In this document: piece after piece, positions 57 through 25,660 of the stretch
Numbering within the stretch: the first letter of the stretch is position 1
Layout of the letters: the number at the start of each line of letters is the position of its first letter
Source: Bacteroidales bacterium
GTDB taxonomy: Bacteria; Bacteroidota; Bacteroidia; Bacteroidales; UBA12077
NCBI GenBank assembly: GCA_034002805.1
Contig: JAVEZW010000003.1
Coordinates: 1 to 46,308 of the forward strand
Reading direction: 5' to 3'
Length of the DNA stretch: 46,308 bases
Position numbers and translations under genes: made by a program
Notes under the pieces: generated by a model
Told to the model about the DNA's origin: nothing
Database searches by the model: none
Seen by the model: the letters and a program-made list of their open reading frames with translations, nothing else

Positions 57-2351
57 ATGAAAATAAAGCTCAAAATCCAGCAAAAAATCCAGCTTTTTAT
101 TATTACTTCCTCCATTCTTATTTACATTATAGCTATTGGCTATATTAGTTTGAGTGCCAGAAAAATGGCCTACGAAAACGCTATTAACCTGACCGACAAC
201 ATCGTTCTTGAATCAGCCGGGAAAGTTAAGGTTGAGCTCGAAACGGATTTTAATATTGTTAACACCCTCTCCAAAGCATTTGTTATTTATAAAGAATTCC
301 CAATGGATAAATGGCAAAAGCTTGTTTCATCAATGTATGGCGAGATTTTCCGGACAACACCTTCGATGTATAGTATTTGGGATAGCTGGGAATTAAATGT
401 TGTTGATCCAACCTATAAAAAACCAACAGGACGATTTGTTGTAATTTACTGGAGAGATAAAGGTTCAATAAAAAGTAATATTGAGTACCGAAGCCTGGAT
501 GGAGATCCTGTACTTTACGCTGAAATTAAAAAACGTGTTCTGCCATCCATTTGGGAGCCTTACGAAGATGTTTTTGCAGATACCAAATCTGAAAAATTTT
601 TAATGACAACTATTAACTCTCCGATACTTGACGGAGGTAAATATGTTGGTATTGTTGCAATTGATATTACCCTCGACCGTTTTCAAAAAATGGTGGAAGA
701 AATAAAACCCTTCGAAGGAAGTTATGCTTTTATAGTTTCAAATAAAGGAGTTATTGCCGGACATCCTAATAAGGCATTTCTAAACATAACACTTGCCGAA
801 CTATTTCCTTCTGAGAAAAAAATTGAAGAGGTTAATAAAAAAATTGGTAAAGGCGAAAAAGTTAATTTTATAACTCAGGATTCAAACGGTAAAGATCACT
901 ATATAACCTTTGCTCCAATAACTATTGGAAACACAGGTACTCCGTGGTCTGTTGCTATTTCAGTTCCGATTAATGTAATTATGGCCAAAGCCAATAAAAA
1001 CTTCCTGATTTCAGCCATTGTTGGTGTTTTTGGCCTTATTTTATTAATTATAATAGTATTCATCATTAGTAAAAACATTACTAATCCGTTAGTTAAAATA
1101 ACACGCCTTCTTAATTTGTTATCAAAAGGACATATTGATAAAAAAATGGCTGTAAAATTAAACTCCGGTGATGAAATTGAAGAAATGGCAGAAGCTCTTA
1201 ATGATTCTATTATCGGATTAAACAAAAAAGTAGAATTTGCTAATCATATAGGAGCTGGTAACCTCAACGCCGATTTTACTCTCTTAAGCGATGATGATGT
1301 GCTTGGAAGATCGTTAATTGATATGCGAAATAGTCTTTTGAAGGCAGAGGAAGAAGATGAGAAGCGAAGACTGGAAGATGAAAAACGAAGGTGGTCAAAT
1401 GAAGGACTAGCTAAATTTGCCGAAATACTTCGTCAGAATAACAATAACCTGGACCTTTTAGCAAACGAAATTATAAGAAACCTTATTTATTATCTTCATG
1501 CAAATCAGGGTGGTATATTTATTATTAATGATCATGACAGAAGCAACATAGTACTTGAGCTTTTAGCATCATTTGCATATAACCGTAAAAAATATATTAA
1601 AAAACAAGTTCAACTCGGAGAAGGATTAGTTGGTGCATGTGCCGTTGAAAAAGAAACTATTCATCTTACTGAGATACCTCAGGATTATGTAAAAATTACG
1701 AGCGGACTTGGAGGTTCAAACCCTACGAGTTTGTTATTAGTGCCTATGCTTATTGAAAAAGATATGTTGGGTGTGATTGAAATTGCGTCTTTTAATGATT
1801 TTAAGAAACACGAAATCGAATTTGTTGAGAAAGTAGCAGAAAGTATTGCATCAACTCTTAAATCGGTAAGAATAAATATTCGAACATCACAGCTTTTAGA
1901 ACAATCGCAGCAGCAATCAGAAGAAATGGCTGCCCAAGAAGAAGAAATGAGACAAAATATGGAAGAACTCCAGGCTACTCAAGAAGAATCAGCCCGAAGA
2001 GAAGCTGAATTCAAGGGAACCCTGGATGCCATTGATCATTTTCTTTTGAAAGTAGAGTTTTCGTTTAATGGAGATATTTTGTTTGCTAATAATCAGTTTT
2101 TACAAAAATTTGAATATTCAATGAACGAAATTAAAGGATTAAAACACACAGCCTTTATTTCAGAGCAGGATACAACAAATTTCCATAAAATATGGACATC
2201 GGTAAATTCCGGATCAGGGCATCACGAAAAAATGAAACTAAAATTGAAATCAGGAAAATTAGTTGAATTTATAGTGGCAATCAGTCCGGTTTATGTAAGC
2301 GATGAGATTGAAAAAATTATTCTATTAGCCATCGATCCATCATTGTTTTAG
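57..2351 (+). CDS. Membrane sensor protein, paralog 1 of 3: TM - Cache-like extracytoplasmic domain - TM - HAMP - GAF - coiled coil - PAS-like tail; no recognisable output domain
   Basis: 764-aa ORF. N-terminal TM helix (LFIITSSILIYIIAIGYISL). About 280 aa of hydrophilic sequence with Cache-like blocks (WDSWELN, RSLDGDP, FEGSYAF..AGHP). Second TM (LISAIVGVFGLILLIIIVFII). HAMP-like NITNPL...SGDEIEEMAEALN. GAF-like ANQGG...GEGLVGACAVEKETI...SGLGGSNP...GVIEIASF. Then the QQQSEEMAAQEEEMRQNMEELQATQEE heptad segment and a ~110-aa PAS-like tail. No H-box, HATPase, GGDEF, EAL or MCP hairpin motif seen. Confidence 0.8.
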   Translation: MKIKLKIQQKIQLFIITSSILIYIIAIGYISLSARKMAYENAINLTDNIVLESAGKVKVELETDFNIVNTLSKAFVIYKEFPMDKWQKLVSSMYGEIFRTTPSMYSIWDSWELNVVDPTYKKPTGRFVVIYWRDKGSIKSNIEYRSLDGDPVLYAEIKKRVLPSIWEPYEDVFADTKSEKFLMTTINSPILDGGKYVGIVAIDITLDRFQKMVEEIKPFEGSYAFIVSNKGVIAGHPNKAFLNITLAELFPSEKKIEEVNKKIGKGEKVNFITQDSNGKDHYITFAPITIGNTGTPWSVAISVPINVIMAKANKNFLISAIVGVFGLILLIIIVFIISKNITNPLVKITRLLNLLSKGHIDKKMAVKLNSGDEIEEMAEALNDSIIGLNKKVEFANHIGAGNLNADFTLLSDDDVLGRSLIDMRNSLLKAEEEDEKRRLEDEKRRWSNEGLAKFAEILRQNNNNLDLLANEIIRNLIYYLHANQGGIFIINDHDRSNIVLELLASFAYNRKKYIKKQVQLGEGLVGACAVEKETIHLTEIPQDYVKITSGLGGSNPTSLLLVPMLIEKDMLGVIEIASFNDFKKHEIEFVEKVAESIASTLKSVRINIRTSQLLEQSQQQSEEMAAQEEEMRQNMEELQATQEESARREAEFKGTLDAIDHFLLKVEFSFNGDILFANNQFLQKFEYSMNEIKGLKHTAFISEQDTTNFHKIWTSVNSGSGHHEKMKLKLKSGKLVEFIVAISPVYVSDEIEKIILLAIDPSLF

Positions 2352-2425
2352 GAAGTAGAATTTTGGACAGGTTTGATTCATAATAAGATTGTTGAAGTAA
2401 TTAGAAAATGAAAAATTAAAAAGAT

Positions 2426-4732
2426 ATGAAGATTAAGCTCAATTTAAGAAACAAGATGCAATTATACCTGATAACCGCCTCGGTTGCTATTTATGTAATA
2501 GCAATTGGTTATATAAGTGTAAACGCAAAAAAAGCAGCTTATAATGATTCGGTAGAGATTGTAAATACTTACGTTGAGAAATATGCTTTTCAGATTCAAT
2601 CAGACATGAATGAGTATTTTGCAACAGTAAGAACCCTTGCAAAAGCATTTTCTATTTATAATACGATGCCAAGGCAAACCTGGGATCCTTTGTTCAACAA
2701 AATGTACGATAAGGTTTATCGTGATAACTCAGAGTTTTATAAACTTTGGGATAGCTGGGAGCTAAATAAATTTGACGAAAATTGGACAAAACCAACTGGT
2801 AGAATTGCAAATGTTTACTCCCGCGTAAATGGAGTAGTGCATTTTAAACAAGATATTAGGAGCCTTGATGGCGATCCTGCAGTGTATGCCTACATAAAAC
2901 AACATGCCAAAGAATTAGTATTACCCATTTATTTCGATGTTTACACTGATGAGCTCGAAGATACTAAATTAATGACAAGCCTTGTGTCACCGATTATCGT
3001 TGATAACCAATATCATGGAATGATTGGTGTAGATTTAATTCTTGAGAAGTTTCAGGATATGGTCGAAAAGATCAAACTTAAACAGTTTGAAGGATCATAC
3101 GCATTTTTACTAAGCCAGGAGGCTAAATATGCAGGACATCCCAAAACTGAATTATTAAACCAAACAGCCGAATTTACCTTAAAAACAGGTGAAAAATTTG
3201 ATCTGTTAAATGCTTTTAATAAAGGAGAACAGTTCTCTATTATTACAAAAGATGAGGCTAACTCAACCCATTTTGTTGCCTTTGCTCCCATAAAAATTGG
3301 AAGAACAAATACCCCCTGGTATATTGGTTTATCCGTTCCAACCAATTCCATTATGGCTATGGCCGATCGAAACTTTATGATTTCGATTCTGGTTGGTATC
3401 TGTGGAATAATTATCCTTGCTTTAATAATTTACTTTATTACAAAAAACATATCCGATCCGATTCAAAAGATAACTGAGTTCCTTAACCTGCTTGCCAAAG
3501 GGAAAACCAGCGTTAAAATGGCATTTATTATAAATACTGGTGATGAAATTGAAGAAATGTCGAAAGCATTAAATACATCGATAATAGAACTCAACAAAAA
3601 AACAGACTTTGCAAATCAGATTGGACTTGGAAACCTTGATCATGAATTTAAGCTTGTAAGTGACGAGGATGAATTAGGTATTGCCTTAATAAATATGCGT
3701 AATAGCTTGACCCAGGCACGTGCTGAAGAGGAAAAAAGAAAAACAGAAGATGAAAAACGCCGATGGACAAACGAAGGATTGGCAAAATTTGCGGATATTT
3801 TAAGGCAGAATAATAATGATCTGGAAAAACTGTCGAATGAAATTATTAAAAACCTGGTTTATTATCTTAATGCTAATCAGGGAGGACTGTTTTTACTCAA
3901 TGATGACGATAAAAACCACCAGTTTCTTCAGTTAATTTCGGCTTTTGCATACGATTCTAAGAAATTTGTTGAGCGTACTATAGAGCTTGGAGATGGAATA
4001 GTGGGAACCTGTGCAATTGAAAGAGAAACAATTTACATGACGGATATTCCACAGGATTATATTTCAATAACCTCTGGGCTGGGAGGTGCAAATCCCGATT
4101 CATTGCTTATTGTACCATTGAATATGGAAGACAAAATTTATGGAGTAATTGAATTAGCATCTTTTAAAAAATTTGAAGATTACCAGATTGATTTTGTCGA
4201 AAAAGTGGGACAAAATATCGCGTCGACATTGTCATCAGTTCAAATAAATATTAAAACCAATGAACTTCTGGAAAAATTCCAGCAGCAATCAGAAGAAATG
4301 GCCGCCCAGGAAGAGGAGATGCGTCAAAATATGGAAGAGCTGCAAGCAACACAAGAAGAAGCAGCCCGAAAAGGAGCCGAAATGGAGAGTTTAATTCATG
4401 CACTCGACCAATCGAGCTATGTTATTGAATATGATCTCGATGGATATATTACCAAAGCCAATGATAATTATCTGAATCTCTTAAATATGAAAAGGTCAGA
4501 TATTATTGGTGTTCATCATGCTGATAAAATGGAGTTTGATGATCAGCAAAAAACTGAGTACAATAAATTCTGGACAGATTTAAGACTCGGAAAAACACGG
4601 AAAGAGAGAACAAGGGCTACAGTAAATGGAAAAACATATCACTTCTTTGAAATCTATTCGCCTCTGTTCGACGAAAACGGAACTGTTTCAAAAATCTTAA
4701 AGATTTCTCATGAGTTATCTGATTTTAAATAA
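2426..4732 (+). CDS. Membrane sensor protein, paralog 2 of 3 (Cache-HAMP-GAF-coiled coil-PAS), no recognisable output domain
   Basis: 768-aa ORF starting 74 bp after paralog 1 and collinear with it: MKIKLNLRNKMQLYLITASVAIYVIAIGYIS, WDSWELN, RSLDGDP, FEGSYAF, TGDEIEEMSKALN, NEGLAKFADILRQNN, ANQGG, SGLGGANP, VIELASF, QQQSEEMAAQEEEMRQNMEELQATQEE. The C-terminal PAS-like module (SSYVIEYDLDGYITKANDNYLNLL...KFWTDLRLGKTRKE) is shared with paralog 3. Confidence 0.8.
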   Translation: MKIKLNLRNKMQLYLITASVAIYVIAIGYISVNAKKAAYNDSVEIVNTYVEKYAFQIQSDMNEYFATVRTLAKAFSIYNTMPRQTWDPLFNKMYDKVYRDNSEFYKLWDSWELNKFDENWTKPTGRIANVYSRVNGVVHFKQDIRSLDGDPAVYAYIKQHAKELVLPIYFDVYTDELEDTKLMTSLVSPIIVDNQYHGMIGVDLILEKFQDMVEKIKLKQFEGSYAFLLSQEAKYAGHPKTELLNQTAEFTLKTGEKFDLLNAFNKGEQFSIITKDEANSTHFVAFAPIKIGRTNTPWYIGLSVPTNSIMAMADRNFMISILVGICGIIILALIIYFITKNISDPIQKITEFLNLLAKGKTSVKMAFIINTGDEIEEMSKALNTSIIELNKKTDFANQIGLGNLDHEFKLVSDEDELGIALINMRNSLTQARAEEEKRKTEDEKRRWTNEGLAKFADILRQNNNDLEKLSNEIIKNLVYYLNANQGGLFLLNDDDKNHQFLQLISAFAYDSKKFVERTIELGDGIVGTCAIERETIYMTDIPQDYISITSGLGGANPDSLLIVPLNMEDKIYGVIELASFKKFEDYQIDFVEKVGQNIASTLSSVQINIKTNELLEKFQQQSEEMAAQEEEMRQNMEELQATQEEAARKGAEMESLIHALDQSSYVIEYDLDGYITKANDNYLNLLNMKRSDIIGVHHADKMEFDDQQKTEYNKFWTDLRLGKTRKERTRATVNGKTYHFFEIYSPLFDENGTVSKILKISHELSDFK

Positions 4733-4759
4733 GAATCGTAAAAGTAAATTATAAAAGCT

Positions 4760-7069
4760 ATGAAGCTCAGACTTAAAATACAACAAAAGATACAGCTGTT
4801 TATTATTTCATCAACTATCATTATTTACCTTATAGCTGTGGGTTATATTAGTTTAAATGCTCGTAAAATTGCATACAACGATGCAACAGAACTAACCAAC
4901 ACCCATGTTCAGGAAGCCGCTAAACAGATAAAAGCACAGCTCGATGCCGATATGATGGTTGTTAAAACGCTTACCGATGCATTTTATCTTTATAAAGAGT
5001 TTCCGAAAGATGAGTGGCAAGATTTGGTGCATAAAATCTATTTTAATGTTTTTAAAAACAATCCTCATATTTATGGCCTTTGGGATAGCTGGGAGCTCGG
5101 TTTTATTGATAAAAACTACGACAAGCCTTATGGACGAATCTGCCATACATATTGGAGAGAAAATGGTGCTATAAAGAACAGCATAGAATACAGAAGTATG
5201 ACCGGTGATCCTCCATTATATACCATAACCAAATCTTTATTGGTACCATCGGTTGCAGAACCTTATTTTGATATTGTTACAGCCGACAAAACAGCATCAT
5301 ATCTAATGTTTAGCTTAAGATCGCCAATGCTTGTAAACAATCAATTTGCTGGTGTTGTTGCAATTGATATCACTCTTGAAGAGTTTCAAAAAATAATTGA
5401 AAGTATCAAACCTTTTAATGGGAGTTATGCCTTTTTACTTTCTAATAAATCGGTAATTGCGGGACATTACCAAACTGATTTGCTCAACCAGAAATTTGAA
5501 GAAGTATTTCCACAAGACGAAAAACAGTTTAAAGTTTCTGAAAAGATTACAAAAGGTGAAAGTTTTAACTATATAAGTAACGATGCCAATGGAGTTCCAA
5601 CATATTACTCGTATGCTCCTATTCTGGTAAAACATACCGTAAATCCATGGTCGATTGCTATTGCTGTACCTGTGGCCGAAATTATGACAAAAGCCAACAG
5701 AAGCTTTAGGATATCAATTCTTGTTGGTATTGCAGGTATTCTAATAATGATAATTGTGATTTACTTTATAGGACGAAATATAACCAATCCTATAACCAAA
5801 ATTACTAAACTCTTAAACCTTGTTGCTAAAGGACATATTGATGAAAAAATGCGAATTGAAATCTCTTCTGGAGATGAAATTGAAGAAATGGCTCTAGCTC
5901 TAAATAAATCAATTGAAGGATTAAATAATAAAGTTGAATTTGCCAACAATATCGGACAAGGAAATTTAAATCACGAATTTGCATTATTAAGCGAAGACGA
6001 TGTACTCGGAAAATCGCTTATAGAGATGAGAAATAGTCTTGTAAAAGCCCGTGAAGAAGAAGAGAAGAGGAAAATGGAAGATAGTAATCGTCAGTGGGCA
6101 AACGAAGGACTTGCAAAATTTGCTGATATCCTAAGGCAAAACAACGATAACCTTGAAACCCTTGCTACCGAAATAATTATGAACTTAGTTAATTATCTCA
6201 ATGCAAATCAGGGTGGTGTATTTATTCTAAACGACGATGATAAGGAACATGTGTTTTTATCAATGCTTTCTGCATTTGCTTTTGACCGACGTAAGTTTTT
6301 GCAAAAAAATATCGATTTAGGCGAAGGACTTGTTGGTACATGTGCCGTTGAAAAAAGAACAATTTTTATGACCTCTTTGCCACAGGATTATATCGAAATC
6401 ACTTCTGGCCTCGGTGGAGCAAATCCAAACTGCTTATTAATAGTTCCTCTTAAGCTAGAAGAAACAGTGCTTGGGGTACTCGAAATAGCATCGTTCAATG
6501 TATTTAAAAAGCATGAGGTTGAGTTTGTAGAGAAATTGGCAGAAAGTATTGCATCTACATTATCGGCTGTAAGAATTAGTATCAGAACTACCGAACTTCT
6601 TGAAAGATCGCAACAGCAAGCAGAAGAAATGGCGGCACAAGAAGAAGAAGTACGTCAGAATATGGAAGAACTACAGGCCACACAAGAAGAATCAGCGCGT
6701 AAAAGTGCCGAAATGGAAGGATTAATTGAGGCTTTAAATACCTCAAGTTATGTAATTGAATATGATACCGAGGGATATATTCAGAATGTAAACGATAATT
6801 ACCTTTCGTTAATTGGAATGAGCAAACACGAAGTTTTGGGTACACATCACTCCGGAAATATTGAATTTACAGAACAGCAACAAGACGATTACGATAAATT
6901 CTGGAAAGATCTAAGAACAGGAAAGGTTCGCAAAGAAACAACCAAAATAAGTATTAAAGGAAAACAGTTTCTATTTGCCGAAACCTACACTCCAATAAGA
7001 AACTCTGATGGTGAAATATATAAGATCCTTAAGATTTCTAATAATATCACTGATTTTCAGAAAAAATAA
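4760..7069 (+). CDS. Membrane sensor protein, paralog 3 of 3 (Cache-HAMP-GAF-coiled coil-PAS), no recognisable output domain
   Basis: 769-aa ORF starting 27 bp after paralog 2, with the same block order: WDSWELG, RSMTGDP, FNGSYAF, SGDEIEEMALALN, NEGLAKFADILRQNN, ANQGG, SGLGGANP, VLEIASF, QQQAEEMAAQEEEVRQNMEELQATQEE. The PAS-like tail reads SSYVIEYDTEGYIQNVNDNYLSLI...KFWKDLRTGKVRKE. Confidence 0.8.
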   Translation: MKLRLKIQQKIQLFIISSTIIIYLIAVGYISLNARKIAYNDATELTNTHVQEAAKQIKAQLDADMMVVKTLTDAFYLYKEFPKDEWQDLVHKIYFNVFKNNPHIYGLWDSWELGFIDKNYDKPYGRICHTYWRENGAIKNSIEYRSMTGDPPLYTITKSLLVPSVAEPYFDIVTADKTASYLMFSLRSPMLVNNQFAGVVAIDITLEEFQKIIESIKPFNGSYAFLLSNKSVIAGHYQTDLLNQKFEEVFPQDEKQFKVSEKITKGESFNYISNDANGVPTYYSYAPILVKHTVNPWSIAIAVPVAEIMTKANRSFRISILVGIAGILIMIIVIYFIGRNITNPITKITKLLNLVAKGHIDEKMRIEISSGDEIEEMALALNKSIEGLNNKVEFANNIGQGNLNHEFALLSEDDVLGKSLIEMRNSLVKAREEEEKRKMEDSNRQWANEGLAKFADILRQNNDNLETLATEIIMNLVNYLNANQGGVFILNDDDKEHVFLSMLSAFAFDRRKFLQKNIDLGEGLVGTCAVEKRTIFMTSLPQDYIEITSGLGGANPNCLLIVPLKLEETVLGVLEIASFNVFKKHEVEFVEKLAESIASTLSAVRISIRTTELLERSQQQAEEMAAQEEEVRQNMEELQATQEESARKSAEMEGLIEALNTSSYVIEYDTEGYIQNVNDNYLSLIGMSKHEVLGTHHSGNIEFTEQQQDDYDKFWKDLRTGKVRKETTKISIKGKQFLFAETYTPIRNSDGEIYKILKISNNITDFQKK

Positions 7070-7086
7070 TTCTCCACCTTCACATA

Positions 7087-7120
7087 AAAAAAGATCCTGC
7101 AAATTTGCAGGATCTTTTTT
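7087..7120. terminator. Bidirectional rho-independent terminator between convergent genes
   Basis: Perfect 34-nt palindrome aaaaaagatcctgcaaa/tttgcaggatctttttt. It has a GC-containing stem, an A-tract on one side and a T-tract on the other. It sits between the stop of the third sensor (7069, +) and the stop of the TPR gene (7142, -). Confidence 0.6.
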
Positions 7121-7141: not shown

Positions 7142-8122
7142 TTACTGGCATTTTAAAACTGTTTCAATTTGATATTTAGCCTGAGCTGCATAATCTCCTT
7201 TATTTGCTTTTTTGTAAGCATCGCAGGCAGCCGCGTTATCCGTTTTACCTACATAAGAATTACCTAACTCAAAATAAATTCGTGCATTTTTATTGGCATC
7301 CTGATCTGCAAATAATTCAAGTGATTTATTTGCGGCAACAATAGCTTCATCCCATTTAGATACTTTATTATAAGCTGATGCCAATTGATAATAAATCTCT
7401 GAATCGCCTTCTTTATAATTTAATAATGCATTAAAATGACTTATTGCATTATCATATTTCTTTGCTTTTACAGCTTCAGCCCCATTTCTTAGAAAGAAAT
7501 TGCTTGCTAACTGCTTGGCTATATCTTCTGATTTAGCATCATTAGTTTGAATTGTAACTTCCAGCGCCTTGTCAATGGTTTCTTTAAATTCAGTTGCTTT
7601 ATTAGTCTCATCATAAACCTGGGCTTTACGAATATAAGCAGTAGCATAGGTTGGATCAAGTTCAATTGATTTATTTAAAAGCACTAACGCCTCATCGTAT
7701 TTCTTTAAGTCAAATTGCTCTTTCCCTTTAGCATAATATACTTTAGGAATAGCACTGTTTGCTCTCTTAAGATATTTCTCGTTATTATAGGTTGTAGAAT
7801 ATTCAACCAACGATTGGAAAGATGTAAGGCAATCATCATATTTTTTTTCTTTGAGTTGTGTGCTTGCTTTCTTGTACAATACAACCAATACCTGTTCTTC
7901 GGCTTTTGGTTTGTTTTCGTTTGCTGGTTCAACCTGATTAAATATTTCGATTGCACTTTTAAACGATGCTATTGCTTCATCATAGTTATCAAGCTGAGAT
8001 AATTCGATTCCTTTGTTAAAAGCTGTTAACGCATCATTAACCGTTTGGGCTTTTATAAATTGTGCGCTTCCAGTGATAAATACTAAGACAATAAGCGTTT
8101 TAAAAAATAATTTCAATTTCAT
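7142..8122 (-). CDS. Secreted/periplasmic tetratricopeptide (TPR) repeat protein
   Basis: 326-aa ORF. Signal-peptide-like N-terminus MKLKLFFKTLIVLVFITGSAQFIKAQ. Repeated ~34-aa units with the TPR signature (..YDEAI..F..AIE.., YDEALVLLNKSIELDP.YA.AY..KA, WDEAIVAANKSLEL). Confidence 0.8.
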   Translation of the reverse strand: MKLKLFFKTLIVLVFITGSAQFIKAQTVNDALTAFNKGIELSQLDNYDEAIASFKSAIEIFNQVEPANENKPKAEEQVLVVLYKKASTQLKEKKYDDCLTSFQSLVEYSTTYNNEKYLKRANSAIPKVYYAKGKEQFDLKKYDEALVLLNKSIELDPTYATAYIRKAQVYDETNKATEFKETIDKALEVTIQTNDAKSEDIAKQLASNFFLRNGAEAVKAKKYDNAISHFNALLNYKEGDSEIYYQLASAYNKVSKWDEAIVAANKSLELFADQDANKNARIYFELGNSYVGKTDNAAACDAYKKANKGDYAAQAKYQIETVLKCQ

Positions 8123-8930: not shown

Positions 8931-9809
8931 TTATTTTTTTAATGCTTCTGCACCACCAACAATCTCGAGTATTTCGCCTGTAATTGAAGCCTGTCGGGCC
9001 TTATTATAGTTTAGCTGAAGATCTTTAATCATTTCAGAAGCATTGTCGGTAGCTTTATGCATAGCAGTCATCCTTGCGCCGTGCTCAGCAGCAAGCGATT
9101 CGAGCATGGCCTCATACAGTCTTAACTTTAACGATTTGGGTATAAGCTCCTGTACTATATATTCTTTGGTTGGCTCAAAAATATAATCGAAATGGCTTTC
9201 CGAAAACTCGTCTTCCTTAATCTCAATTGGCAAAAAAGTACTTGTTGTTAAGATTTGTACTCCTGCATTTTTAAACCGATTATAAACTAAAATTATCTTG
9301 TCTGCTTTTTTCGTTAAATAGAGGTTTAAAATTTGCTCGATGAGCGAAAGTGCACTTCCGTAGCTTAACTGATCTAATAGTTGATTATTTGTTTGCAAAA
9401 CGGGGTATTTTTTCGATTGAAAATACTCTGATCCCTTTTTGCCCAGCGAGATAATTTTCACGTTACCCTGAGCATATTCACCAGCATAATCATTATTGAT
9501 TAGCTGGTTAACCTGTTTAATTACATTTGCATTAAACGCTCCGCACAAACCTTTGTTTGAGGTTATAGCTACAATTACTATTTTTTCGGGTATTTCGTCT
9601 CTCGTATAAACATTCTCAAGAGAACCTTCAATCGATTGAGAGATATCTTTAAGAATAAAATGAAGTTTTTCGGAATACGGACGAAGATTAATCACAGCAT
9701 CCTGCGCCTTCTTTAATTTTGCAGCAGAAACCATTTTCATGGCACTGGTAATTTGCCGGGTAGATTTTACCGATACAATGCGTGATCGTATTTCCTTTAA
9801 ATTCCCCAT
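8931..9809 (-). CDS. atpG: F-type ATP synthase F1 subunit gamma
   Basis: 292-aa ORF. Canonical N-terminus MGNLKEIRSRIVSVKSTRQITSAMKMVSAAKLKKAQ and C-terminus EHGARMTAMHKATDNASEMIKDLQLNYNKARQASITGEILEIVGGAEAL. Last gene of the atpBEFHAG order. Confidence 0.95.
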   Translation of the reverse strand: MGNLKEIRSRIVSVKSTRQITSAMKMVSAAKLKKAQDAVINLRPYSEKLHFILKDISQSIEGSLENVYTRDEIPEKIVIVAITSNKGLCGAFNANVIKQVNQLINNDYAGEYAQGNVKIISLGKKGSEYFQSKKYPVLQTNNQLLDQLSYGSALSLIEQILNLYLTKKADKIILVYNRFKNAGVQILTTSTFLPIEIKEDEFSESHFDYIFEPTKEYIVQELIPKSLKLRLYEAMLESLAAEHGARMTAMHKATDNASEMIKDLQLNYNKARQASITGEILEIVGGAEALKK

Positions 9810-9820
9810 CCTGATATCAA

Positions 9821-11401
9821 TTAGATCTTATATCTGGTAACTAACATGCCGGCAACACTTTCTAGTGTAGCAGTTATGCTTTCGTTGATAATTCCTTCTT
9901 TTAACTGATTTAATACGCTTTGATGTTCAAGTTCGAGAAGCTCTAAAAACTCCGATTCGAAAGCTTTAATTTTTGCTAAAGGAACTTCTTTTAATAACCC
10001 TTTTGTTCCACAGTAAATTATAGCTATCTGCTTTTCTACTGACATAGGCGAATATTGTCCTTGCTTTAAGATTTCAACATTCTTTGATCCTTTATCGAGA
10101 ATAGCCATTGTGGCATCATCCAAATCAGAACCGAATTTTGAAAAAGCTTCAAGTTCTCGATACTGCGCCTGATCAAGCTTTAATGTTCCTGCAACCTTTT
10201 TCATCGATTTAATTTGAGCATTACCACCTACACGCGATACCGAAATACCAACGTTTATGGCAGGTCTGATACCCGAATTAAACAAATCAGATTCAAGAAA
10301 TATCTGTCCATCGGTAATTGAGATAACGTTTGTTGGAATATATGCAGAAACATCTCCTGCCTGGGTTTCAATAATCGGTAATGCCGTTAATGATCCGCCA
10401 CCCTTAACTCTTTTTATAAGCGACTCGGGTAAATCGTTCATTTTGGCAGCAATTTCATCAGACTGAATAATACGGGCCGCTCTTTCCAGCAATCTGGAGT
10501 GCAAATAAAAAATATCTCCCGGATATGCTTCTCTGCCAGGAGGTCTTCTGAGCAATAATGACACCTCACGATAAGCCACAGCCTGTTTAGAAAGATCATC
10601 AAAAATAATGAGGGCATCGCGACCGGTATCTCTAAAATATTCACCAATACATGTTCCTGCAAATGGAGCATAAAACTGTAATGCCGCTGATTCAGATGCG
10701 GTAGCACAAACAATTACAGTATAATCCATTGCTCCATGTTTCTCGAGTATTTGAGCAATGTTGGCAACAGTAGATCCCTTCTGTCCAATTGCTACATAGA
10801 TGCAATAAACGGGCTCTCCTTTATCATAAAATTCGCGTTGATTTATTATTGTATCAATTGCAATAGCTGTTTTCCCTGTCTGACGATCGCCAATAATAAG
10901 TTCTCGCTGGCCTCTGCCAATAGGAATCATTGCATCAATTGGCTTAATGCCAGTTTGAATTGGCCTGTTTACGGGTTGTCTGAATATAACACCAGGTGCC
11001 TTTCTCTCAAGCGGCATTTCATATAGGTCTCCATTTATGGTCCCCTTGCCATCAATTGGTTCGCCAAGAGTATTAATTACTCTTCCCAACAAACTTTCAC
11101 CAACTTTAATTGAAGCTATTCTTCGAGTTCTTCTTACTTTATCACCTTCCTTAATTTGTTGCGATGACCCTAAAATTACGGCTCCAACATTATCTTCTTC
11201 GAGGTTAAGTACTATTCCTCTAACTCCATTCTGAAATTCAATTAATTCATTTGACTGAACAGAGGATAATCCATAAATACGGGCAATACCATCGCCCACT
11301 TGCAACACGCTTCCTACCTCTTCAAGTTCTGCATTCGAAGTAAATCCTTCGAGTTGAAGTTTTAGTATTTTTGAAACTTCACCTGGCTTAATTCCTGCCA
11401 T
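9821..11401 (-). CDS. atpA: F-type ATP synthase F1 subunit alpha
   Basis: 526-aa ORF. Walker [19 protein letters not shown]. Also [47 protein letters not shown] and [32 protein letters not shown]. Confidence 0.97.
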
Positions 11402-11403
11402 AA

Positions 11404-11976
11404 TTAACTAATTTTAGTTTTTTTCTTTGTGCTTAAATCGTACTCTAACAAGTTGGTCTTAAACCTGCTTAATTGCCTTGAAACACTCATGTCAAGTTCC
11501 TTGTCGTTTATCTGCAATATAATTCCACCTATAATTGACTGATCAACTTTTATATTTAGCTCTATTTTTGATTTCAATTTATCTTCAATTGCTTCAGTTA
11601 ATCTTTCTGTTTCCCCTTTATCCAGATCATATGCCGTTGTTAACAAAACAGATTGTATATGCTGATTTTTCTTATATAAATCAATAAAATTTCTTACAAT
11701 TCTCTGAAGATATATTTCTCTTTTATGCTGAATAATTAACTGTAAAAAAGAAAGTGTAATTGAATCAACCTCATCTTTAAACAAGCTAACTAAGACCTGT
11801 GTTTTTTGAGAAGGCTTAATCACAGGATGCTCCAAAAGCTTTATAAGATCTGATGAGTTAACTAAAATATCATTTAACAGTAAAATATCCTTAATAAGGA
11901 TTTCAACCTTATTCTTCTCCTGAGCTAGAAAAAATAACGCTTTGGCATATCGTATGGCTATCTGGCTTTGATTCAT
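11404..11976 (-). CDS. atpH: F-type ATP synthase F1 subunit delta (OSCP)
   Basis: 190-aa ORF between atpF and atpA, with its stop 2 nt before the atpA start. N-terminus [18 protein letters not shown] is typical of delta/OSCP. C-terminal [22 protein letters not shown] matches the delta signature. Confidence 0.85.
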
Positions 11977-11991
11977 ACCCTACTTTTCAGA

Positions 11992-12486
11992 TCAATTTAG
12001 GTCTATATCGTCTATCAGCTTATTAATAAGCTGCTTTTGTTTTTCTTTATTCTCCAGCTCGCTTTTAAGAATTTTTTGGGCTATGATTACAGAAAGCTCT
12101 GTTATTTGATTTTTTATTTCATTAATAGCATCAACCTTTTCTTTTTCAATACTTTTTCGAGCTTCCTCCATAATTTTTCTTGCTTCAACTTTGGCTTCGT
12201 TTTTGGCTTCTTCAATAATATTATTCTTAATTTCTTTAGCCTCTTTTAGAATGTTCTCTCGTTCTATTTTTGCAAGAGCCGAAATTTTTTCGTTACCAAA
12301 TTCAATTTTTGCAAGCTCTTCCTTTGCTTTTTTAGCAGCTAACAATCTTTTCTCGATAGTACTTTCACGGTCCTTAAGGGCTTTAAGTATTGGTTTCCAA
12401 GCATATTTTATTAAAATAAAGGTAACAATACCAAAAGATACTATCATCCAAATTAATAACCCAATGTCTGGTTTTATAAGTTCCAT
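11992..12486 (-). CDS. atpF: F-type ATP synthase F0 subunit b
   Basis: 164-aa ORF. One N-terminal TM helix (GLLIWMIVSFGIVTFILIKYAWKPI) followed by a long K/E/A-rich helix. Located between atpE and atpH. Confidence 0.85.
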   Translation of the reverse strand: MELIKPDIGLLIWMIVSFGIVTFILIKYAWKPILKALKDRESTIEKRLLAAKKAKEELAKIEFGNEKISALAKIERENILKEAKEIKNNIIEEAKNEAKVEARKIMEEARKSIEKEKVDAINEIKNQITELSVIIAQKILKSELENKEKQKQLINKLIDDIDLN

Positions 12487-12549
12487 AGTATTGAATTTAA
12501 ATTTAAAAAACTTTACAGCTCGCCAACCGCAAAGCTGTAAAGTAAATCC

Positions 12550-12807
12550 TTAAACAAAAAGAATAAGGAAACAAACTACAATTGCAAAAAACGCAACTCC
12601 TTCGATAAGAGCAGCAGCAACAATCATATTAGAACGAATATCGCCGGCAGCTTCGGGTTGTCTGGCAATTGATTCCATTGCAGAACTACCTATCTTGCCA
12701 ATACCCATTCCAGCAGCAATAGCTGCTATTGCAGCTCCAAATCCAGCACCAAGCTTTGCTATTGCAGCTCCTTCGATGGCTAGTAAAATAAAACCTAATG
12801 TACTCAT
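12550..12807 (-). CDS. atpE: F-type ATP synthase F0 subunit c (proteolipid)
   Basis: 85-aa hairpin protein with the ARQPE loop (ESIARQPEAAGD) and the carboxylate in helix 2 (AALIEGVAFFAIV, E69). Confidence 0.9.
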   Translation of the reverse strand: MSTLGFILLAIEGAAIAKLGAGFGAAIAAIAAGMGIGKIGSSAMESIARQPEAAGDIRSNMIVAAALIEGVAFFAIVVCFLILFV

Positions 12808-12834
12808 AATGTTTGTATTAAGTGAATATATCTA

Positions 12835-13929
12835 TTAATGATGTTCTTCTACCGCCATACCAAAATACAGCGCTGATAAAAATGTAAATACGTATGCCTG
12901 AATAAATGCTACTAAAAGCTCCAAAACAGACATGAAAATAGCAAATAAAACAGATATGGGTGATGCAGCAAGTCCCAAATAATCATTGATGTTTCCAAAA
13001 ATAAAAATCAGACTAAAAAAACCCAGCACAATGATATGCCCCGCCGAAATATTTGCAAAAAGACGAACCATTAATACAAATGGCTTTATAAATATTCCTA
13101 CAAGCTCAATAACCGGAATTATTGGAACAGGAACTTTTAACCACCAAGGAATTGATGGTGCATTAAATATATGTTTCCAATATCCTTTATTCCCGCTAAT
13201 GGTTGTTATTATAAATGTAAATAACGCAAGCACAAGTGTAACTGTGATATTTCCTGTGATATTTGCTCCTCCTGGGAAAATAGGTATTAATCCCAGTAAA
13301 TTATTCAACAGAATAAAAAAGAAAATAGTAAGTAAAAATGGGGTAAACTTCTCGTATTTTTTTTCATTAATTGAGGATTTTGCGATATCATCACGAACAA
13401 ATAAAATAACCGGTTCAATCAACGATTGCAATCCAATAGGAGGCATATCAATTCGTCGCTGATATGTTTTTGCAACAGATAAAAAAACAATTATTAAAAT
13501 TATAGAACTTACAATTAATGCCAGAACATTTTTAGTTATTGATAGATCCAGCGGCTTTTCAACAAACATATTCGATGAATCGACTTCAATGATTTTGCCT
13601 TTGTATTTTCCATTATGATCAATAATAAATCCTTTATATGCATGTCCGTGCTCCAATTTTGATGAAAGAAAAACCTCCCAGCCCTGGTTACTGCTATATA
13701 ATATTACCGGTAAGGGAATAGAGACATGTTTGTGTTTATAAGTAAATAAATGCCACCCATATTGGTCGAGAATATGATCGAAAATAAATGCACCAACATC
13801 TAGTTTTTTGGATTCGTTTGTGGCGTTTGTAGAATCTAAAGGGGCGTGTTTATCCTCAGCAAAAGTACTAATGCATAAAATCATTAGCAGAAGCAATACA
13901 GATAATATTTTCAGACAGCTTCTATTCAT
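12835..13929 (-). CDS. atpB: F-type ATP synthase F0 subunit a (with N-terminal extension)
   Basis: 364-aa polytopic membrane ORF carrying the essential-Arg motif in LMVRLFANISAGHII. Has an N-terminal signal-like segment plus the FIFDHILDQYGWHLF block. First gene of the F-type operon. Confidence 0.9.
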   Translation of the reverse strand: MNRSCLKILSVLLLLMILCISTFAEDKHAPLDSTNATNESKKLDVGAFIFDHILDQYGWHLFTYKHKHVSIPLPVILYSSNQGWEVFLSSKLEHGHAYKGFIIDHNGKYKGKIIEVDSSNMFVEKPLDLSITKNVLALIVSSIILIIVFLSVAKTYQRRIDMPPIGLQSLIEPVILFVRDDIAKSSINEKKYEKFTPFLLTIFFFILLNNLLGLIPIFPGGANITGNITVTLVLALFTFIITTISGNKGYWKHIFNAPSIPWWLKVPVPIIPVIELVGIFIKPFVLMVRLFANISAGHIIVLGFFSLIFIFGNINDYLGLAASPISVLFAIFMSVLELLVAFIQAYVFTFLSALYFGMAVEEHH

Positions 13930-22753: not shown

Positions 22754-25660
22754 TTAAAGCTGAGAGATATTTATTCCGAAGATCAACTCGGAAAAAATAC
22801 TGTTTGAATAATTTGTATAACCAACTCGAACACCCGTATTTAATGGAAAAATCATACGCAACAAATGGTAATCAACAGATATTTCGAATCCATAACTCAT
22901 CAAATTATAGTTTGCCCAAAATATTGTATTTGTATTATTATCGAGTGCTCTGAATTTATTATTTGCATAATTAAAGAAAAGATCTCCTTTTATTCGTTTT
23001 ATGTAAGCCACGGGTCCAATGCTCCAATCGGGATAAGCAACTGGAAAAACATAATCAATATTAAATTTTGATAACTTTTCTGTTCTAAATTCTTTTATAC
23101 CATGCGGAAAACTAAAATTAGTTGCTAAAAGATACATCTCCGGTTCCTGAAACTGGTAGCCAGCATTAAGTTTTATTCCATGGTTCTTAAAAAACCCTGG
23201 TAAATAAACTGATCCATCAAAATTAGCCATAAATCCGAATAACTCATTCTCGAGTGGAGTATTAAATAATTTTATATCAACCAATAGTCCTGCCCGGGGC
23301 TGAATGTCTCTTGTTGAAGTTCGTTTTAACCAATAAAATAATATCTGTTCATTAAAAAAAGCATTACCAGAAATGTAATAATCATCAACATAATTATAGT
23401 AATATGAATTCTGAAAATCAATATTAAGTCGCGGTATAAAACCTCCAACCATATTTCCGGAGGAAATATTTACCGGAATGTAAATATCAAGATTATAAGA
23501 GAAGTCGTTATAGCTTAGCTCTGGAAACCAAGTGGTGTTTTCGGGCGCAAAATATTGATGCAAATTGCCATAATTAGCCGAGAATTTAAGGACAGGCAAA
23601 AGTCCTTTATAAATTATAGATGTTTCAAAATAATGATGTCCGTTTTTATAAGCATAACCAACCACTGTTTCTGTTGTACTAAGTTTATTTTGAGATAAAA
23701 GCATTATCCCAGGATGAATAATGGTGGTTAATTTTTCTGGTTCTGTTAAAAACCCATTAAGTGTTTCGTTTGAATAATCAAAATAAAAAGGAGTCCAGCT
23801 ATGAAAACTAAATGTGCTCAACAGTTTATAATACCTTCGTACAGGATATTTTACCGATGATAATTCTTTACCCCTGTCATTTTCTGACTCCTGATTGGTT
23901 AATGCTTCAGAAAATACCATCTCGTTCTTTTTTGTGTCTAAAATCTTCCATAATCCTCTTTCTATGGGAATCACCCCTAACCTATTTCCCTGCGAAGAAT
24001 ATTCTGCAACAATAATATCTTTGTTATTCTTATCAATACAAAAATTGGTAATCCCCGATGCAGAGAGTGATATCTGATATTCTTCCTTTGTTACTGGATC
24101 AAACACACAAACCTCATCGTTGCCATTTTTTGTTGAGTGGAAAAAGAGATAGTTATTCGATGGTATAATTCTCTGTATATCTGCGCTTTCAGATTGCAAA
24201 ACCATTTCCCTCAACCTATTTTCGAAACTATACTTTGAAACCTGCTTACCATTATTATCTGTAAGCTCAATCAGATAAATGCTTTTTGAATCGGCTGTCC
24301 ATTTGGGCCTCATTATAAAATTAGAGCAAGGAATCCGATAGTGAACTTCACCGTTGAACGAACTTATAACAGTCAAAAAATACTGATTATCAGGAGTAAC
24401 CTCAACTACGGCAATTTTGTTTGCATCGGGCGAAATATCTGGACTAAAATAACGACTTTTTAAAACTACCGTCCGTACTTTTTTTGTTTCGATATTCATC
24501 ATTTTTATGGAGGAATACTCTTTGTTTTGCCATCGAAAATGAGGTTTATATTCAGCCCATACTAAAAACTTTTTTGCCACAGAAAAATCTTCGGAAACCA
24601 ATACACCTGGTTCAATAATTATTGATTCGCTTTCGGGACTAATAATTACAAACTGAGGAATGTGGTTTAATCCTTTTTTTAAGGCAATTACCTGGTTTGT
24701 ATCGAATGAACCCGGGTTGATATAATCTTCGTACTGTTTAATTTTGTATTGCTGAAAAGGAATTGGTCGGATTGGTGGATTTCTTTCTTCTTTTTTAATA
24801 TAAACACTATCAAGGTAATTAAGCGTTTCATTATATAACTGCTTTTGATTTAACCCGGTCTGCTTTTTTAATCCTAATGAAAAAGCCAATGGTGTTGGAA
24901 AAAGAGAATAGGAATTTCGTGCAACAAAGTTATGAGTTGAACTCACTGCTTTATTTCCATATTTTGTTCTGAGATAAGCAGTTAACTGATATCCAAATTC
25001 ATAATGGTTAGGTACATATTGATTATACGAACCGAAGAGCATTTGATCTAAACTAAACCATTTTTCGTCGCTCAATAAATGCGTTTTTATGTTTTTTTCG
25101 AATGCGGGAGATCGCCCGCGACCAAATTTTCCAAAAGCTGTTTCAGTACATACAGCATCACCTTCGTAATACCACATGGGCAATTGGCCTGCAGTCATTC
25201 CTACAGCCATCTGACCAAATAGAATACCCAGAATTTTTGTTATTCCCTGATCTAACTTATCAATTTGAACCACATGGCGCAACTCATGAACGCACAAATG
25301 TTCTAGCCATGGATCGGGCAATAGATCCTGCGATGGTGTTGCATATAATTCCATTCTTTTCGGAGCCCAGCTTACATAACCATTCGACCGAATGGTTTGA
25401 TTATGCACAACAACCGATATTTTTTTGGGTTGATGGTCTAATGATTGACTTGCGGAGAGATAATAACTCTCAAGGATATTAGCTATCTTTTGAGCTTCTG
25501 CTTCGTATTTACGATCAAAAAGTACCTGAAAGTGGTTGGTATTAATTTGACTCCATTTAATATTTGCAGGCTCTTGCCCTGTTGAATAAAACTGAGCAAA
25601 AATCTTATTACATAAAAAAATAACTACAATAAGCAATATGAACCGAAGTTGTTTGCCCAT
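22754..25660 (-). CDS. Large secreted/outer-membrane protein: N-terminal HExxH zinc-peptidase-like domain, central TolB-like beta-propeller, C-terminal beta-barrel-like region
   Basis: 968-aa ORF. Signal peptide MGKQLRFILLIVVIFLCNKIFAQ. HELRH at aa 125-129 (nt 25274-25288) followed by WYYEGDA, a possible third ligand Glu. The middle has repeated strand-rich units (SPDISPDANKIAVVEV, KWTADSKSIYLIEL). The last ~350 aa are rich in alternating aromatic/polar residues (Y/F/N), as in OM barrels. Confidence 0.75.
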   Translation of the reverse strand: MGKQLRFILLIVVIFLCNKIFAQFYSTGQEPANIKWSQINTNHFQVLFDRKYEAEAQKIANILESYYLSASQSLDHQPKKISVVVHNQTIRSNGYVSWAPKRMELYATPSQDLLPDPWLEHLCVHELRHVVQIDKLDQGITKILGILFGQMAVGMTAGQLPMWYYEGDAVCTETAFGKFGRGRSPAFEKNIKTHLLSDEKWFSLDQMLFGSYNQYVPNHYEFGYQLTAYLRTKYGNKAVSSTHNFVARNSYSLFPTPLAFSLGLKKQTGLNQKQLYNETLNYLDSVYIKKEERNPPIRPIPFQQYKIKQYEDYINPGSFDTNQVIALKKGLNHIPQFVIISPESESIIIEPGVLVSEDFSVAKKFLVWAEYKPHFRWQNKEYSSIKMMNIETKKVRTVVLKSRYFSPDISPDANKIAVVEVTPDNQYFLTVISSFNGEVHYRIPCSNFIMRPKWTADSKSIYLIELTDNNGKQVSKYSFENRLREMVLQSESADIQRIIPSNNYLFFHSTKNGNDEVCVFDPVTKEEYQISLSASGITNFCIDKNNKDIIVAEYSSQGNRLGVIPIERGLWKILDTKKNEMVFSEALTNQESENDRGKELSSVKYPVRRYYKLLSTFSFHSWTPFYFDYSNETLNGFLTEPEKLTTIIHPGIMLLSQNKLSTTETVVGYAYKNGHHYFETSIIYKGLLPVLKFSANYGNLHQYFAPENTTWFPELSYNDFSYNLDIYIPVNISSGNMVGGFIPRLNIDFQNSYYYNYVDDYYISGNAFFNEQILFYWLKRTSTRDIQPRAGLLVDIKLFNTPLENELFGFMANFDGSVYLPGFFKNHGIKLNAGYQFQEPEMYLLATNFSFPHGIKEFRTEKLSKFNIDYVFPVAYPDWSIGPVAYIKRIKGDLFFNYANNKFRALDNNTNTIFWANYNLMSYGFEISVDYHLLRMIFPLNTGVRVGYTNYSNSIFSELIFGINISQL

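Follow-up and report, generated by a model that had tools for sequence, protein, structure and literature searches.

Sensor proteins that lack an output domain are common in genome censuses, and most have been left unexplained. In methyl-accepting chemotaxis proteins (MCPs), by comparison, output is provided by the MCPsignal domain (PF00015), an antiparallel four-helix-bundle hairpin whose conserved tip binds CheA and CheW. In the SiaABCD system of Pseudomonas aeruginosa, which consists of the PP2C phosphatase SiaA, the kinase SiaB, the phosphoprotein SiaC and the cyclase SiaD, the SiaABC proteins form an established partner switch (PMC7647112). Here we describe three consecutive genes, termed A, B and C, at the beginning of a 46,308 nt stretch of contig JAVEZW010000003.1 (assembly GCA_034002805.1, a Bacteroidales bacterium of lineage UBA12077). 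This whole stretch is called the window below. The products of the three genes are membrane receptors in which no known transmitter could be found.

Our analysis suggests that the three proteins belong to a family of membrane receptors spread across Bacteroidota, in which they are paralogues, each with its own ligand specificity. These receptors would be dimeric, with a variable periplasmic sensor followed by HAMP, a HAMP-like linker, GAF, an invariant acidic helix and an optional PAS domain. We propose that they lack a transmitter because it is encoded elsewhere, in an operon that combines the adaptation enzymes CheR and CheB with homologues of SiaA, SiaB and SiaC. We tentatively regard A, B and C as dispersed, probably methyl-accepting receptors feeding this SiaABC-type partner switch, an assignment that we hold at a little under even confidence. 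The triplet would then have a role like that of dispersed MCP genes for a che operon.

Three receptors without a known transmitter

Each of the three proteins is composed, in order, of a transmembrane (TM) segment, dCache_1, a second TM segment, HAMP, a HAMP-like linker, GAF, a helix of about 80 residues and PAS. Pfam models for dCache_1, HAMP, GAF_2/GAF and PAS_9 match all three, with E-values (dCache_1, HAMP, GAF_2 and PAS_9, respectively) of 2.8e-18, 5.8e-6, 5e-12 and 5.3e-8 for gene A, 1.1e-5, 1.3e-3, 6.6e-16 and 1.6e-6 for gene B, and 1.4e-6, 3.8e-8, 2.5e-15 and 1.1e-9 for gene C; the dCache_1 and HAMP matches of gene B and the dCache_1 match of gene C lie below the curated Pfam cut-off. 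An AlphaFold2 model of the gene C protein (54-sequence alignment, mean pLDDT 82) has two TM helices flanking a Cache ectodomain, then HAMP, a second HAMP-like helical linker, GAF, and a continuous helix (residues 584-662) that runs on into the terminal PAS domain. The modelled ectodomain (approximately residues 35-312) superposes on the dCache ligand-binding domains 9heh, 3lib and 7psg with TM-scores to the target of 0.76-0.80 (Foldseek). Ligands of the nearest structures are amines and quaternary amines. Both Foldseek and PDB sequence searches with the N-terminal half return dCache ligand-binding domains of chemoreceptors and kinases.

Known transmitters were not found in A, B or C by Pfam, NCBIfam, PDB sequence and profile searches, or AlphaFold2 combined with Foldseek. 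At E<=1, Pfam gives no HisKA, HATPase_c, GGDEF, EAL, HD-GYP, MCPsignal, SpoIIE, STAS, REC or HTH domain in any of the three, and CheB_methylest and CheR domains were also not found with Pfam. The proteins thus lack the core of histidine kinases, the domains of cyclic di-GMP enzymes, the catalytic domain of SiaA/RsbU-type PP2C phosphatases, and the fused domains of CheB/CheR-fusion kinases. An NCBIfam scan gave no family-level match over any cut-off; NF038263 matches gene A weakly (24 bits), and this match is limited to the sensor/HAMP part.

A hidden output domain within the C-terminal ~170 aa was ruled out, since profile searching, AlphaFold2 and Foldseek give only PAS and dCache. A profile of the last 174 aa (17 members) matches only PAS domains in the PDB (MmoS, Aer, LOV and NifL), with no PDB match to the invariant helix. 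The terminal PAS was considered as a possible flavin binder: these best matches are FAD/FMN PAS domains, and Asn/Trp flavin-contact motifs were not seen by eye in the aligned PAS region. A dimerization and histidine phosphotransfer (DHp)-like helix was also ruled out, because no His, Asp or Cys is conserved in helix residues 602-662 across 54 members.

These results agree with an earlier note on this DNA, which had proposed a collinear sensor architecture without a known transmitter and had named a hidden C-terminal output domain as the thing to check by profile search. Its three same-strand ORFs match ours exactly in length and spacing; all three are intact, and terminator-like sites are present neither in the 74 bp A-B gap nor in the 27 bp B-C gap. 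The single bidirectional terminator that it described corresponds to a hairpin with a 15-bp stem (positions 7087-7120), located between gene C and a convergent TPR gene (7142-8122) and common to both. Every shared sequence block that it quoted is found in the three proteins, namely WDSWEL, RS(L/M)(D/T)GDP, F(E/N)GSYAF, GDEIEEM, NEGLAKFA(E/D)ILRQNN, ANQGG, SGLGG(S/A)NP and (I/L)E(I/L)ASF.

The closest likeness to a described receptor class is to MCPs with dCache_1. The N-terminal halves are alike (TM-dCache_1-TM-HAMP), so that A, B and C have the ligand-binding domain, two TM segments and HAMP domain typical of that class. As with MCPs, each genome has multiple paralogues whose sensors vary but whose cytoplasmic part contains one invariant segment, relatives adjoin CheR and CheB, and the helix has Glu-Glu (EE) pairs at heptad spacing, one of them in an EExxA(S/T) sequence. 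In contrast to MCPs, GAF and PAS domains take the place of the four-helix bundle, a single continuous predicted helix leads into PAS, and the operon associated with the family has no CheA or CheW. Because A, B and C lack the signalling hairpin that defines MCPs, they do not belong to that class.

The three genes are old paralogues under strong purifying selection, as the earlier note had suggested. They are 49-55% identical in amino acid sequence and 58-62% in nucleotide sequence, identical residues have the same codon in only about half of cases, and synonymous sites are saturated between the paralogues (pS 0.70-0.76). Ratios of nonsynonymous to synonymous substitution (dN/dS), computed against orthologues in two metagenome-assembled genomes (MAGs; L003 and L004), are 0.02-0.11 overall (A, 0.04-0.11; B, 0.02-0.04; C, 0.02-0.03), with 0.008-0.012 for the helix and 0.02-0.04 for PAS. 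Gene A is 71% identical to its L004 counterpart, compared with 91-92% for B and C between these two genomes, and its faster change is mostly in the dCache domain (dN/dS 0.19). This pattern suggests a shift in ligand specificity.

The selection data also bear on whether the proteins are decayed or non-signalling remnants, such as truncated kinases, decoys or ligand sinks, as the lack of an output domain might imply. The dN/dS values given above, for the helix and PAS as well as overall, indicate constraint and exclude decay, and length is uniform across hundreds of orthologues, with conserved array order. We therefore consider this explanation highly improbable.

The A-B-C gene order is kept in about ten loci, with orthologues of gene A down to 46% identity, and most of these loci have a fourth gene, usually of ~677 aa and without PAS. 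Thus, the triplet that had been singled out as an oddity is real, but it is one case of a conserved A-B-C(-D) array in a family of thousands. The fourth paralogue follows C at L002:12339-14369, with equivalents in L005-L007, L011, L060 and L062. These proteins are usually 676-679 aa long, without PAS and with an extended coiled-coil end, whereas L005 and L062 have a 770-aa copy. The fourth paralogue has been lost from the window lineage, where the terminator is directly 3′ of C.

An invariant acidic helix in a large receptor family

Conservation within the family peaks in an acidic helix of 28 residues, SQQQAEEMAAQEEEMRQNMEELQATQEE, which is nearly invariant in Bacteroidales and Cytophagales. 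Among 54 members, the mean column entropy of the helix core (residues 617-644) is 0.19 bits, compared with 0.95 for GAF, 1.24 for HAMP, 1.57 for dCache and 1.66 for PAS. Almost all positions from Q618 to E644 are invariant or close to it, including those that would be solvent exposed in a coiled coil. The core is a four-fold heptad, [Q/N/T]-x-E-E-[M/L]-x-x, with a net charge of -8 and EE pairs at 622/623, 629/630, 636/637 and 643/644, a seven-residue spacing. The methylation sites of Tsr (297, 304 and 311) are also spaced by seven residues (PMC1079850). One of the four pairs fits the MCP methylation consensus EExxA(S/T), with the exact sequence EELQAT.

Each pair of paralogues shares 26-28 identical helix residues, of which 9-12 have different codons. 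Because of these synonymous differences within the helix, gene conversion was ruled out as the source of helix identity. The motif is present in 119 of 120 close homologues, PAS-less ones included. Since many members have no PAS and some end just past the helix, the constant C-terminal element is the acidic helix and PAS is optional. The PAS-like tail earlier described as the shared C-terminal module is therefore a feature of A, B and C, but it is not the constant of the family.

Three kinds of described protein are comparable in this part. The first are S-helix linkers, long parallel helices that, like the helix here with its RTxELLE-like start, exit GAF and lead into the next module. S-helices normally conserve core positions and lead to an output domain; here, by contrast, invariance extends over all faces of four further heptads, and in many members nothing follows. 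The second are CheB/CheR-fusion PAS kinases (KEGG K13924 type), the nearest annotated parallel to a Glu-rich heptad helix beside CheR/CheB and PAS. In these proteins CheR/CheB domains stand beside a Glu-rich heptad helix with NEELQST repeats that leads into PAS, but all parts are in one soluble kinase, and the register, as read from sequence, is N-E-E-L-x-x-x rather than Q-x-E-E-M-x-x. We know of no established function for that helix. The third are NifL acting on NifA and RetS acting on GacS, which may be functionally similar as sensors that act by contact without a catalytic output of their own. NifL and RetS are kinase-like proteins, and to our knowledge they have no sequence relationship to the family described here and no invariant acidic helix.

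Short-peptide homology queries, made with the helix and with the CheB/CheR-type repeat, returned only tiny ORFs or fragments; the proteins in which the NEELQS repeat occurs carry the label CheB/CheR fusion. In dozens of ORFs of 44-88 aa with this label (P0274-P0324), the NEELQS-type heptad helix makes up almost the whole sequence, and some of them also have a PAS_10 start. Such ORFs could be fragments, or they could encode short helix proteins that exist by themselves.

We define the wider family by an N-terminal TM sensor, HAMP with a conserved linker, GAF, and the helix core QEEEMRQNMEELQATQEE; A, B and C possess every one of these elements. An exhaustive HMMER search with a GAF-helix-PAS query gave 4,495 representative clusters at E<=1e-30. 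The top 150 members range from 293 to 2,581 aa, and almost all have a varied membrane sensor (dCache_1, Cache_3-Cache_2 and 4HB_MCP are represented), then HAMP, linker and GAF, followed by 1 to 15 helix-PAS units. In most of them (126 of 150), no more than 100 aa follow the last recognised unit. A classical output domain is present in only five: SpoIIE, MCPsignal (in the distant relative P0134), a HisKA/HATPase kinase core in two proteins, and GGDEF-EAL in one. Current annotations name members 'GAF domain-containing', 'cache domain-containing' or 'methyl-accepting chemotaxis protein'.

An exact DNA-pattern scan of species-representative genomes for the 18-residue motif QEEEMRQNMEELQATQE(E/D) located at least 119 stretches in Bacteroidales and Cytophagales, with hosts that include Marivirga, Fulvivirga, Rapidithrix, Mangrovivirga, Pseudochryseolinea and Cyclobacteriaceae. 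The order HAMP-linker-GAF-helix is found in all 125 motif-bearing ORFs. Among the 86 complete ones, 81 have at least one TM segment ahead of HAMP, 32 have no PAS by the family model (some longer tails resemble a diverged PAS), and 11 stop less than 40 aa beyond the motif. Family members are also found on short contigs in non-Bacteroidota MAGs, namely L010, L014 ('Thiohalospira sp.') and L095 (Chlorobiota). These occurrences are probably due to mis-binning; horizontal transfer is less likely.

A CheR/CheB-SiaABC operon associated with the family

The earlier note had advised a survey of gene neighbourhoods for a recurring partner. Among ~200 clustered family loci, no universal adjacent partner gene was found, but one operon does recur. 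Other neighbours considered as family-wide partners (hybrid kinase, TPR-SpoIIE, cNMP-binding kinase and adenylate cyclase) were rejected, as they occur at about the frequency expected by chance in genomes so rich in signalling genes. In the recurring operon, first seen in eight to nine motif loci, a receptor is followed by genes for CheR, CheB, a GAF protein, a HAMP-GAF-helix-PAS-PAS-SpoIIE protein, a DUF6272 protein and SiaC. The operon order is CheR1, the receptor where present, CheR2, CheB, membrane GAF protein, SiaA-like PP2C phosphatase, SiaB kinase, SiaC, and a TerB/ABC transporter.

The assignments of these operon proteins rest on strong matches. CheR carries PF01739 and PF03705, and CheB is a methylesterase of 185-197 aa without a receiver (REC) domain; the CheR and CheB_methylest domain matches are clear. 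The GAF protein is ~255 aa long. DUF6272 corresponds to SiaB_fam_kinase (178 bits versus a cut-off of 85, NCBIfam), SiaC scores 144 bits with Pfam, and the PP2C part of the phosphatase matches the C-terminal region of SiaA with 174 bits (NCBIfam). CheA, CheW and MCPsignal were not found in the operon or its immediate flanks, which are the regions that were searched for them.

As a reverse test, genomes were scanned with an alignment of the operon CheR proteins. The locus frequencies are sample estimates because they come from the best 80 of at least 435 relatives here, and from the best 80 of at least 589 for the other locus list. CheB immediately follows CheR at 78 of the 80 CheR loci, a helix-bearing protein is present at 72, and the complete gene set at 61. 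Two CheR genes occur at 45 loci. A receptor of the output-less family adjoins CheR at 42, and in many of these it is between two CheR genes.

The operon resembles SiaABCD in that it encodes, in the same order, a membrane PP2C phosphatase with HAMP, a SiaB-family kinase and a SiaC-family protein. It differs in having two CheR proteins, the REC-less CheB and the membrane GAF protein in addition, a TerB/ABC transporter in the place of siaD, and a phosphatase with GAF-helix-PAS-PAS; furthermore, A, B and C lack a PP2C domain. The SiaA-like phosphatase carries the same HAMP-GAF-helix module as the receptors; in Bacteroidales it has only two TM segments and lacks a large ectodomain. Its helix, ...QQMTEELKENEEELRQNAEEMRATQEEL, has the RQNxEE[ML]xATQEE core and the four EE pairs in common with them.

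The TerB-ABC2 transporter and two further genes are kept downstream in both orders. This 3′ continuation, always present at ~60 loci (L228:15831-20344 and equivalents), consists of three genes. One encodes a TerB-ABC2-type transporter (~1,025 aa); of the other two products, the larger (~300 aa) has a TM segment at its N-terminus and the smaller (~146 aa) is secreted. The latter two have no Pfam or NCBIfam match. These proteins may be what SiaC acts on here instead of SiaD.

Several observations connect the window triplet with this operon. Residues 336-769 of gene C align over the full length with the operon-embedded receptors at 40-52% identity, the level of identity among A, B and C themselves, and the cytoplasmic part of gene C is 33-40% identical to the HAMP-GAF-helix part of the phosphatase. 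Two MAGs, JBFXEQ01 and JAIFLC01, carry an orthologous array (95-98% and 71-92% identity, respectively) and, on another contig, a ten-gene operon without an embedded receptor; the same picture is seen in GWF2_33_16. At least 22 assemblies are common to both locus lists, the cultured Marivirga lumbricoides and Pseudochryseolinea flava among them. Thus, the earlier statement that the triplet is not explained by chemotaxis logic was too strong, given that close relatives adjoin CheR and CheB in a conserved operon.

From these relationships we envisage the following mechanism. A ligand would bind the divergent dCache domain, and the signal would be relayed via HAMP and GAF into the long helix. The helix, with its four EE pairs, would accept methyl groups in adaptation by CheR and CheB, with E623, E630, E637 and E644 as candidate residues, and it would also be the surface that couples the receptors to the SiaA-like phosphatase, most plausibly through mixed oligomers formed by the homologous HAMP-GAF-helix modules. 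The balance of phosphatase and SiaB kinase activity would set the phosphorylation state of SiaC, which would in turn switch a downstream target. Helix methylation, phosphatase coupling and the SiaC target are all inferred. The partner switching that the earlier note had guessed at was the right direction, but it would proceed via a separately encoded phosphatase, kinase and phosphoprotein module.

Methylation is suggested indirectly by two features: CheR and CheB adjoin the receptors in operons without a canonical substrate, and the EE pairs have heptad spacing as in Tsr. However, the same pathway could operate with an unmethylated helix that, as an extended S-helix, provides no more than a surface for coupling and transmission. 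The receptors would then couple through the shared HAMP-GAF-helix as heterodimers or arrays, and CheR and CheB would act on another substrate or on the phosphatase only. The operon association and the homology serve this explanation equally well, as do the S-helix-like RTxELLE start at the GAF exit, the recurrence of the same helix ahead of each of up to 15 PAS units, as expected of a transmission linker, and the three of four EE pairs that miss the full MCP consensus. In contrast, a pure linker would keep its core positions only, whereas almost all positions are invariant here; moreover, an output-less receptor adjoins CheR in over half of the sampled loci, often between two CheR genes, and four EE pairs at heptad spacing are found in receptor and phosphatase alike. 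We judge an unmethylated helix to be unlikely, though a serious contender.

It is also conceivable that a partner unrelated to CheR/CheB or SiaABC reads the helix and that the embedded receptors are a specialised subfamily. Signalling neighbours are absent from most family loci and, where present, differ in kind (TPR-SpoIIE, adenylate cyclase-HD or cNMP-binding kinase), and rare relatives are fused to SpoIIE, MCPsignal, HisKA/HATPase or GGDEF-EAL. However, no recurrent candidate appears in the ~200 loci, and no system other than the CheR/CheB-SiaABC operon is repeatedly associated with the family in two orders. Such a partner is quite improbable in our estimation.

Other observations weigh against the assignment of A, B and C to a CheR/CheB-SiaABC pathway. 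No CheR, CheB or Sia gene is present in the 46-kb window, and the link between window and operon is by family membership and sister MAGs, where binning errors are possible. The operon-embedded receptors carry N-terminal sensors other than the dCache type of the window, and just one of the four EE pairs has the full MCP consensus. The search for CheA, CheW and MCPs covered the operon and its flanks, so CheR and CheB might have other substrates. In addition, genes in the surveyed loci were called with a simple ORF caller. Finally, the genes located upstream of the triplet, described below, could be its real partners in this clade.

Some family members have a further neighbour, a YfiR/HmsC-like periplasmic protein (DUF4154) encoded directly 5′ of the receptor (L059:7212-7736, L177:1077-1595 and similar), in both Bacteroidales and Cytophagales loci. 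By analogy with YfiR acting on YfiN, this suggests periplasmic control of those receptors.

Genomic surroundings and implications

The window begins 56 nt 5′ of gene A, and the upstream context was therefore read from the near-identical contig L001. On the same strand, outside the window, is a gene for a 951-aa hybrid histidine kinase with the domains dCache_2/sCache_2-PAS-HisKA-HATPase-REC. A YgjP-like gene (239 aa) overlaps its end by 4 bp, the two together occupying L001:1560-5131, and is separated from gene A by a 166-nt gap without a terminator-like site. The helix motif is not present in the kinase.

This arrangement raises the possibility that kinase, YgjP-like gene, A, B and C are co-transcribed, and that in this clade the triplet provides accessory sensors of the kinase through PAS-PAS or membrane contacts. 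In favour are the single strand of the five genes, the overlap and terminator-free gap just described, and the retention of the order in ten loci despite divergence of gene A to 46% identity. However, synteny in those loci extends over the entire region and takes in unrelated opposite-strand genes downstream, so the adjacency of the kinase is no better conserved than its surroundings. Distant loci (L016, L020, L024 and L053) have the receptor without the kinase, the kinase has no helix motif, and PAS is the most variable part of the receptors and is missing from many members. Overall, we regard a kinase partnership as improbable. A kinase beside the triplet is not significant in itself because signalling genes are dense in the window, which also encodes hybrid kinases with PAS-HisKA-HATPase-REC (34766-37600, minus strand) and TPR-PAS-HisKA-HATPase-REC (39761-42601, plus strand).

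Features of the triplet are listed in the table. Elsewhere in the window, an F-type ATP synthase gene set (8931-13929, minus strand; gamma, alpha, delta, b, c and a, with no beta or epsilon) is back-to-back with a V-type ATPase operon (14063-~22000, minus strand; c/K-like, I, D, B and A). A 968-aa ORF without a Pfam match (22754-25660, minus strand) adjoins a gene for a protein with a type IX secretion system (T9SS) C-terminal sorting domain (25667-27268, minus strand). A 1,017-aa protein (27827-30880, plus strand) has an N-terminal TMEM260-like O-mannosyltransferase domain.

Table. Positions of the triplet genes, their parts and the downstream hairpin in the window
Feature	Positions	Strand	Basis
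Gene A, 764 aa receptor without transmitter	57..2351	+	ORF list; Pfam
Gene A dCache_1 stretch, periplasmic, residues 125-302	429..962	+	Pfam; nearest PDB sequences are chemoreceptor/kinase dCache
Gene A HAMP	1065..1205	+	Pfam
Gene A GAF	1455..1859	+	Pfam
Gene A invariant acidic helix core SQQQSEEMAAQEEEMRQNMEELQATQEESA, candidate methyl-accepting and coupling segment	1905..1994	+	Family alignment
Gene A C-terminal PAS	2067..2324	+	Pfam; PDB profile search gives PAS domains only
Gene B, 768 aa, architecture as gene A	2426..4732	+	ORF list; Pfam
Gene B dCache_1 stretch, residues 172-301	2939..3328	+	Pfam
Gene B HAMP, below Pfam cut-off	3434..3592	+	Pfam
Gene B GAF	3815..4231	+	Pfam
Gene B invariant helix core FQQQSEEMAAQEEEMRQNMEELQATQEEAA	4277..4366	+	Family alignment
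Gene B C-terminal PAS	4415..4720	+	Pfam; PDB profile search
Gene C, 769 aa, architecture as gene A; copy modelled with AlphaFold2	4760..7069	+	ORF list; Pfam
Gene C dCache_1 stretch, residues 174-288	5279..5623	+	Pfam; structure superposition
Gene C HAMP	5765..5926	+	Pfam
Gene C GAF	6149..6562	+	Pfam
Gene C invariant helix core SQQQAEEMAAQEEEVRQNMEELQATQEESA	6608..6697	+	Family alignment
Gene C C-terminal PAS	6746..7054	+	Pfam; PDB profile search
Bidirectional intrinsic-terminator-like hairpin, 15-bp stem, A-run 5′, T-run 3′	7087..7120	.	Sequence

Taken together, the data may point to a previously unrecognised class of adapting pathway in Bacteroidota, a proposal that we advance with somewhat less than even confidence. 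Non-MCP receptors, with the invariant Glu-rich helix for methyl acceptance and coupling, would be adapted by CheR and a REC-less CheB, output would pass through SiaA, SiaB and SiaC to a TerB-ABC target, and the PP2C switch would replace CheA, CheW and CheY, with the triplet of the window serving as dispersed receptors. In the literature searched, we found no published description of the family, the motif or the CheR/CheB-SiaABC combination, and the system is not covered in PMC9239204. Each kind of component was already known; what is new is the combination of a chemosensory-type adaptation module with a partner-switch output.

One very large family of output-less sensors is now tied to a concrete downstream module and to CheR and CheB. 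Cultured hosts exist, including Perlabentimonas gracilis, Marivirga, Fulvivirga, Pseudochryseolinea flava and Chryseolinea lacunae. Methylation of the helix, if it occurs, would explain why CheR and CheB are kept in Bacteroidota operons without CheA, CheW or MCP genes, and methylation-based adaptation would then extend beyond MCP/CheA/CheW arrays.

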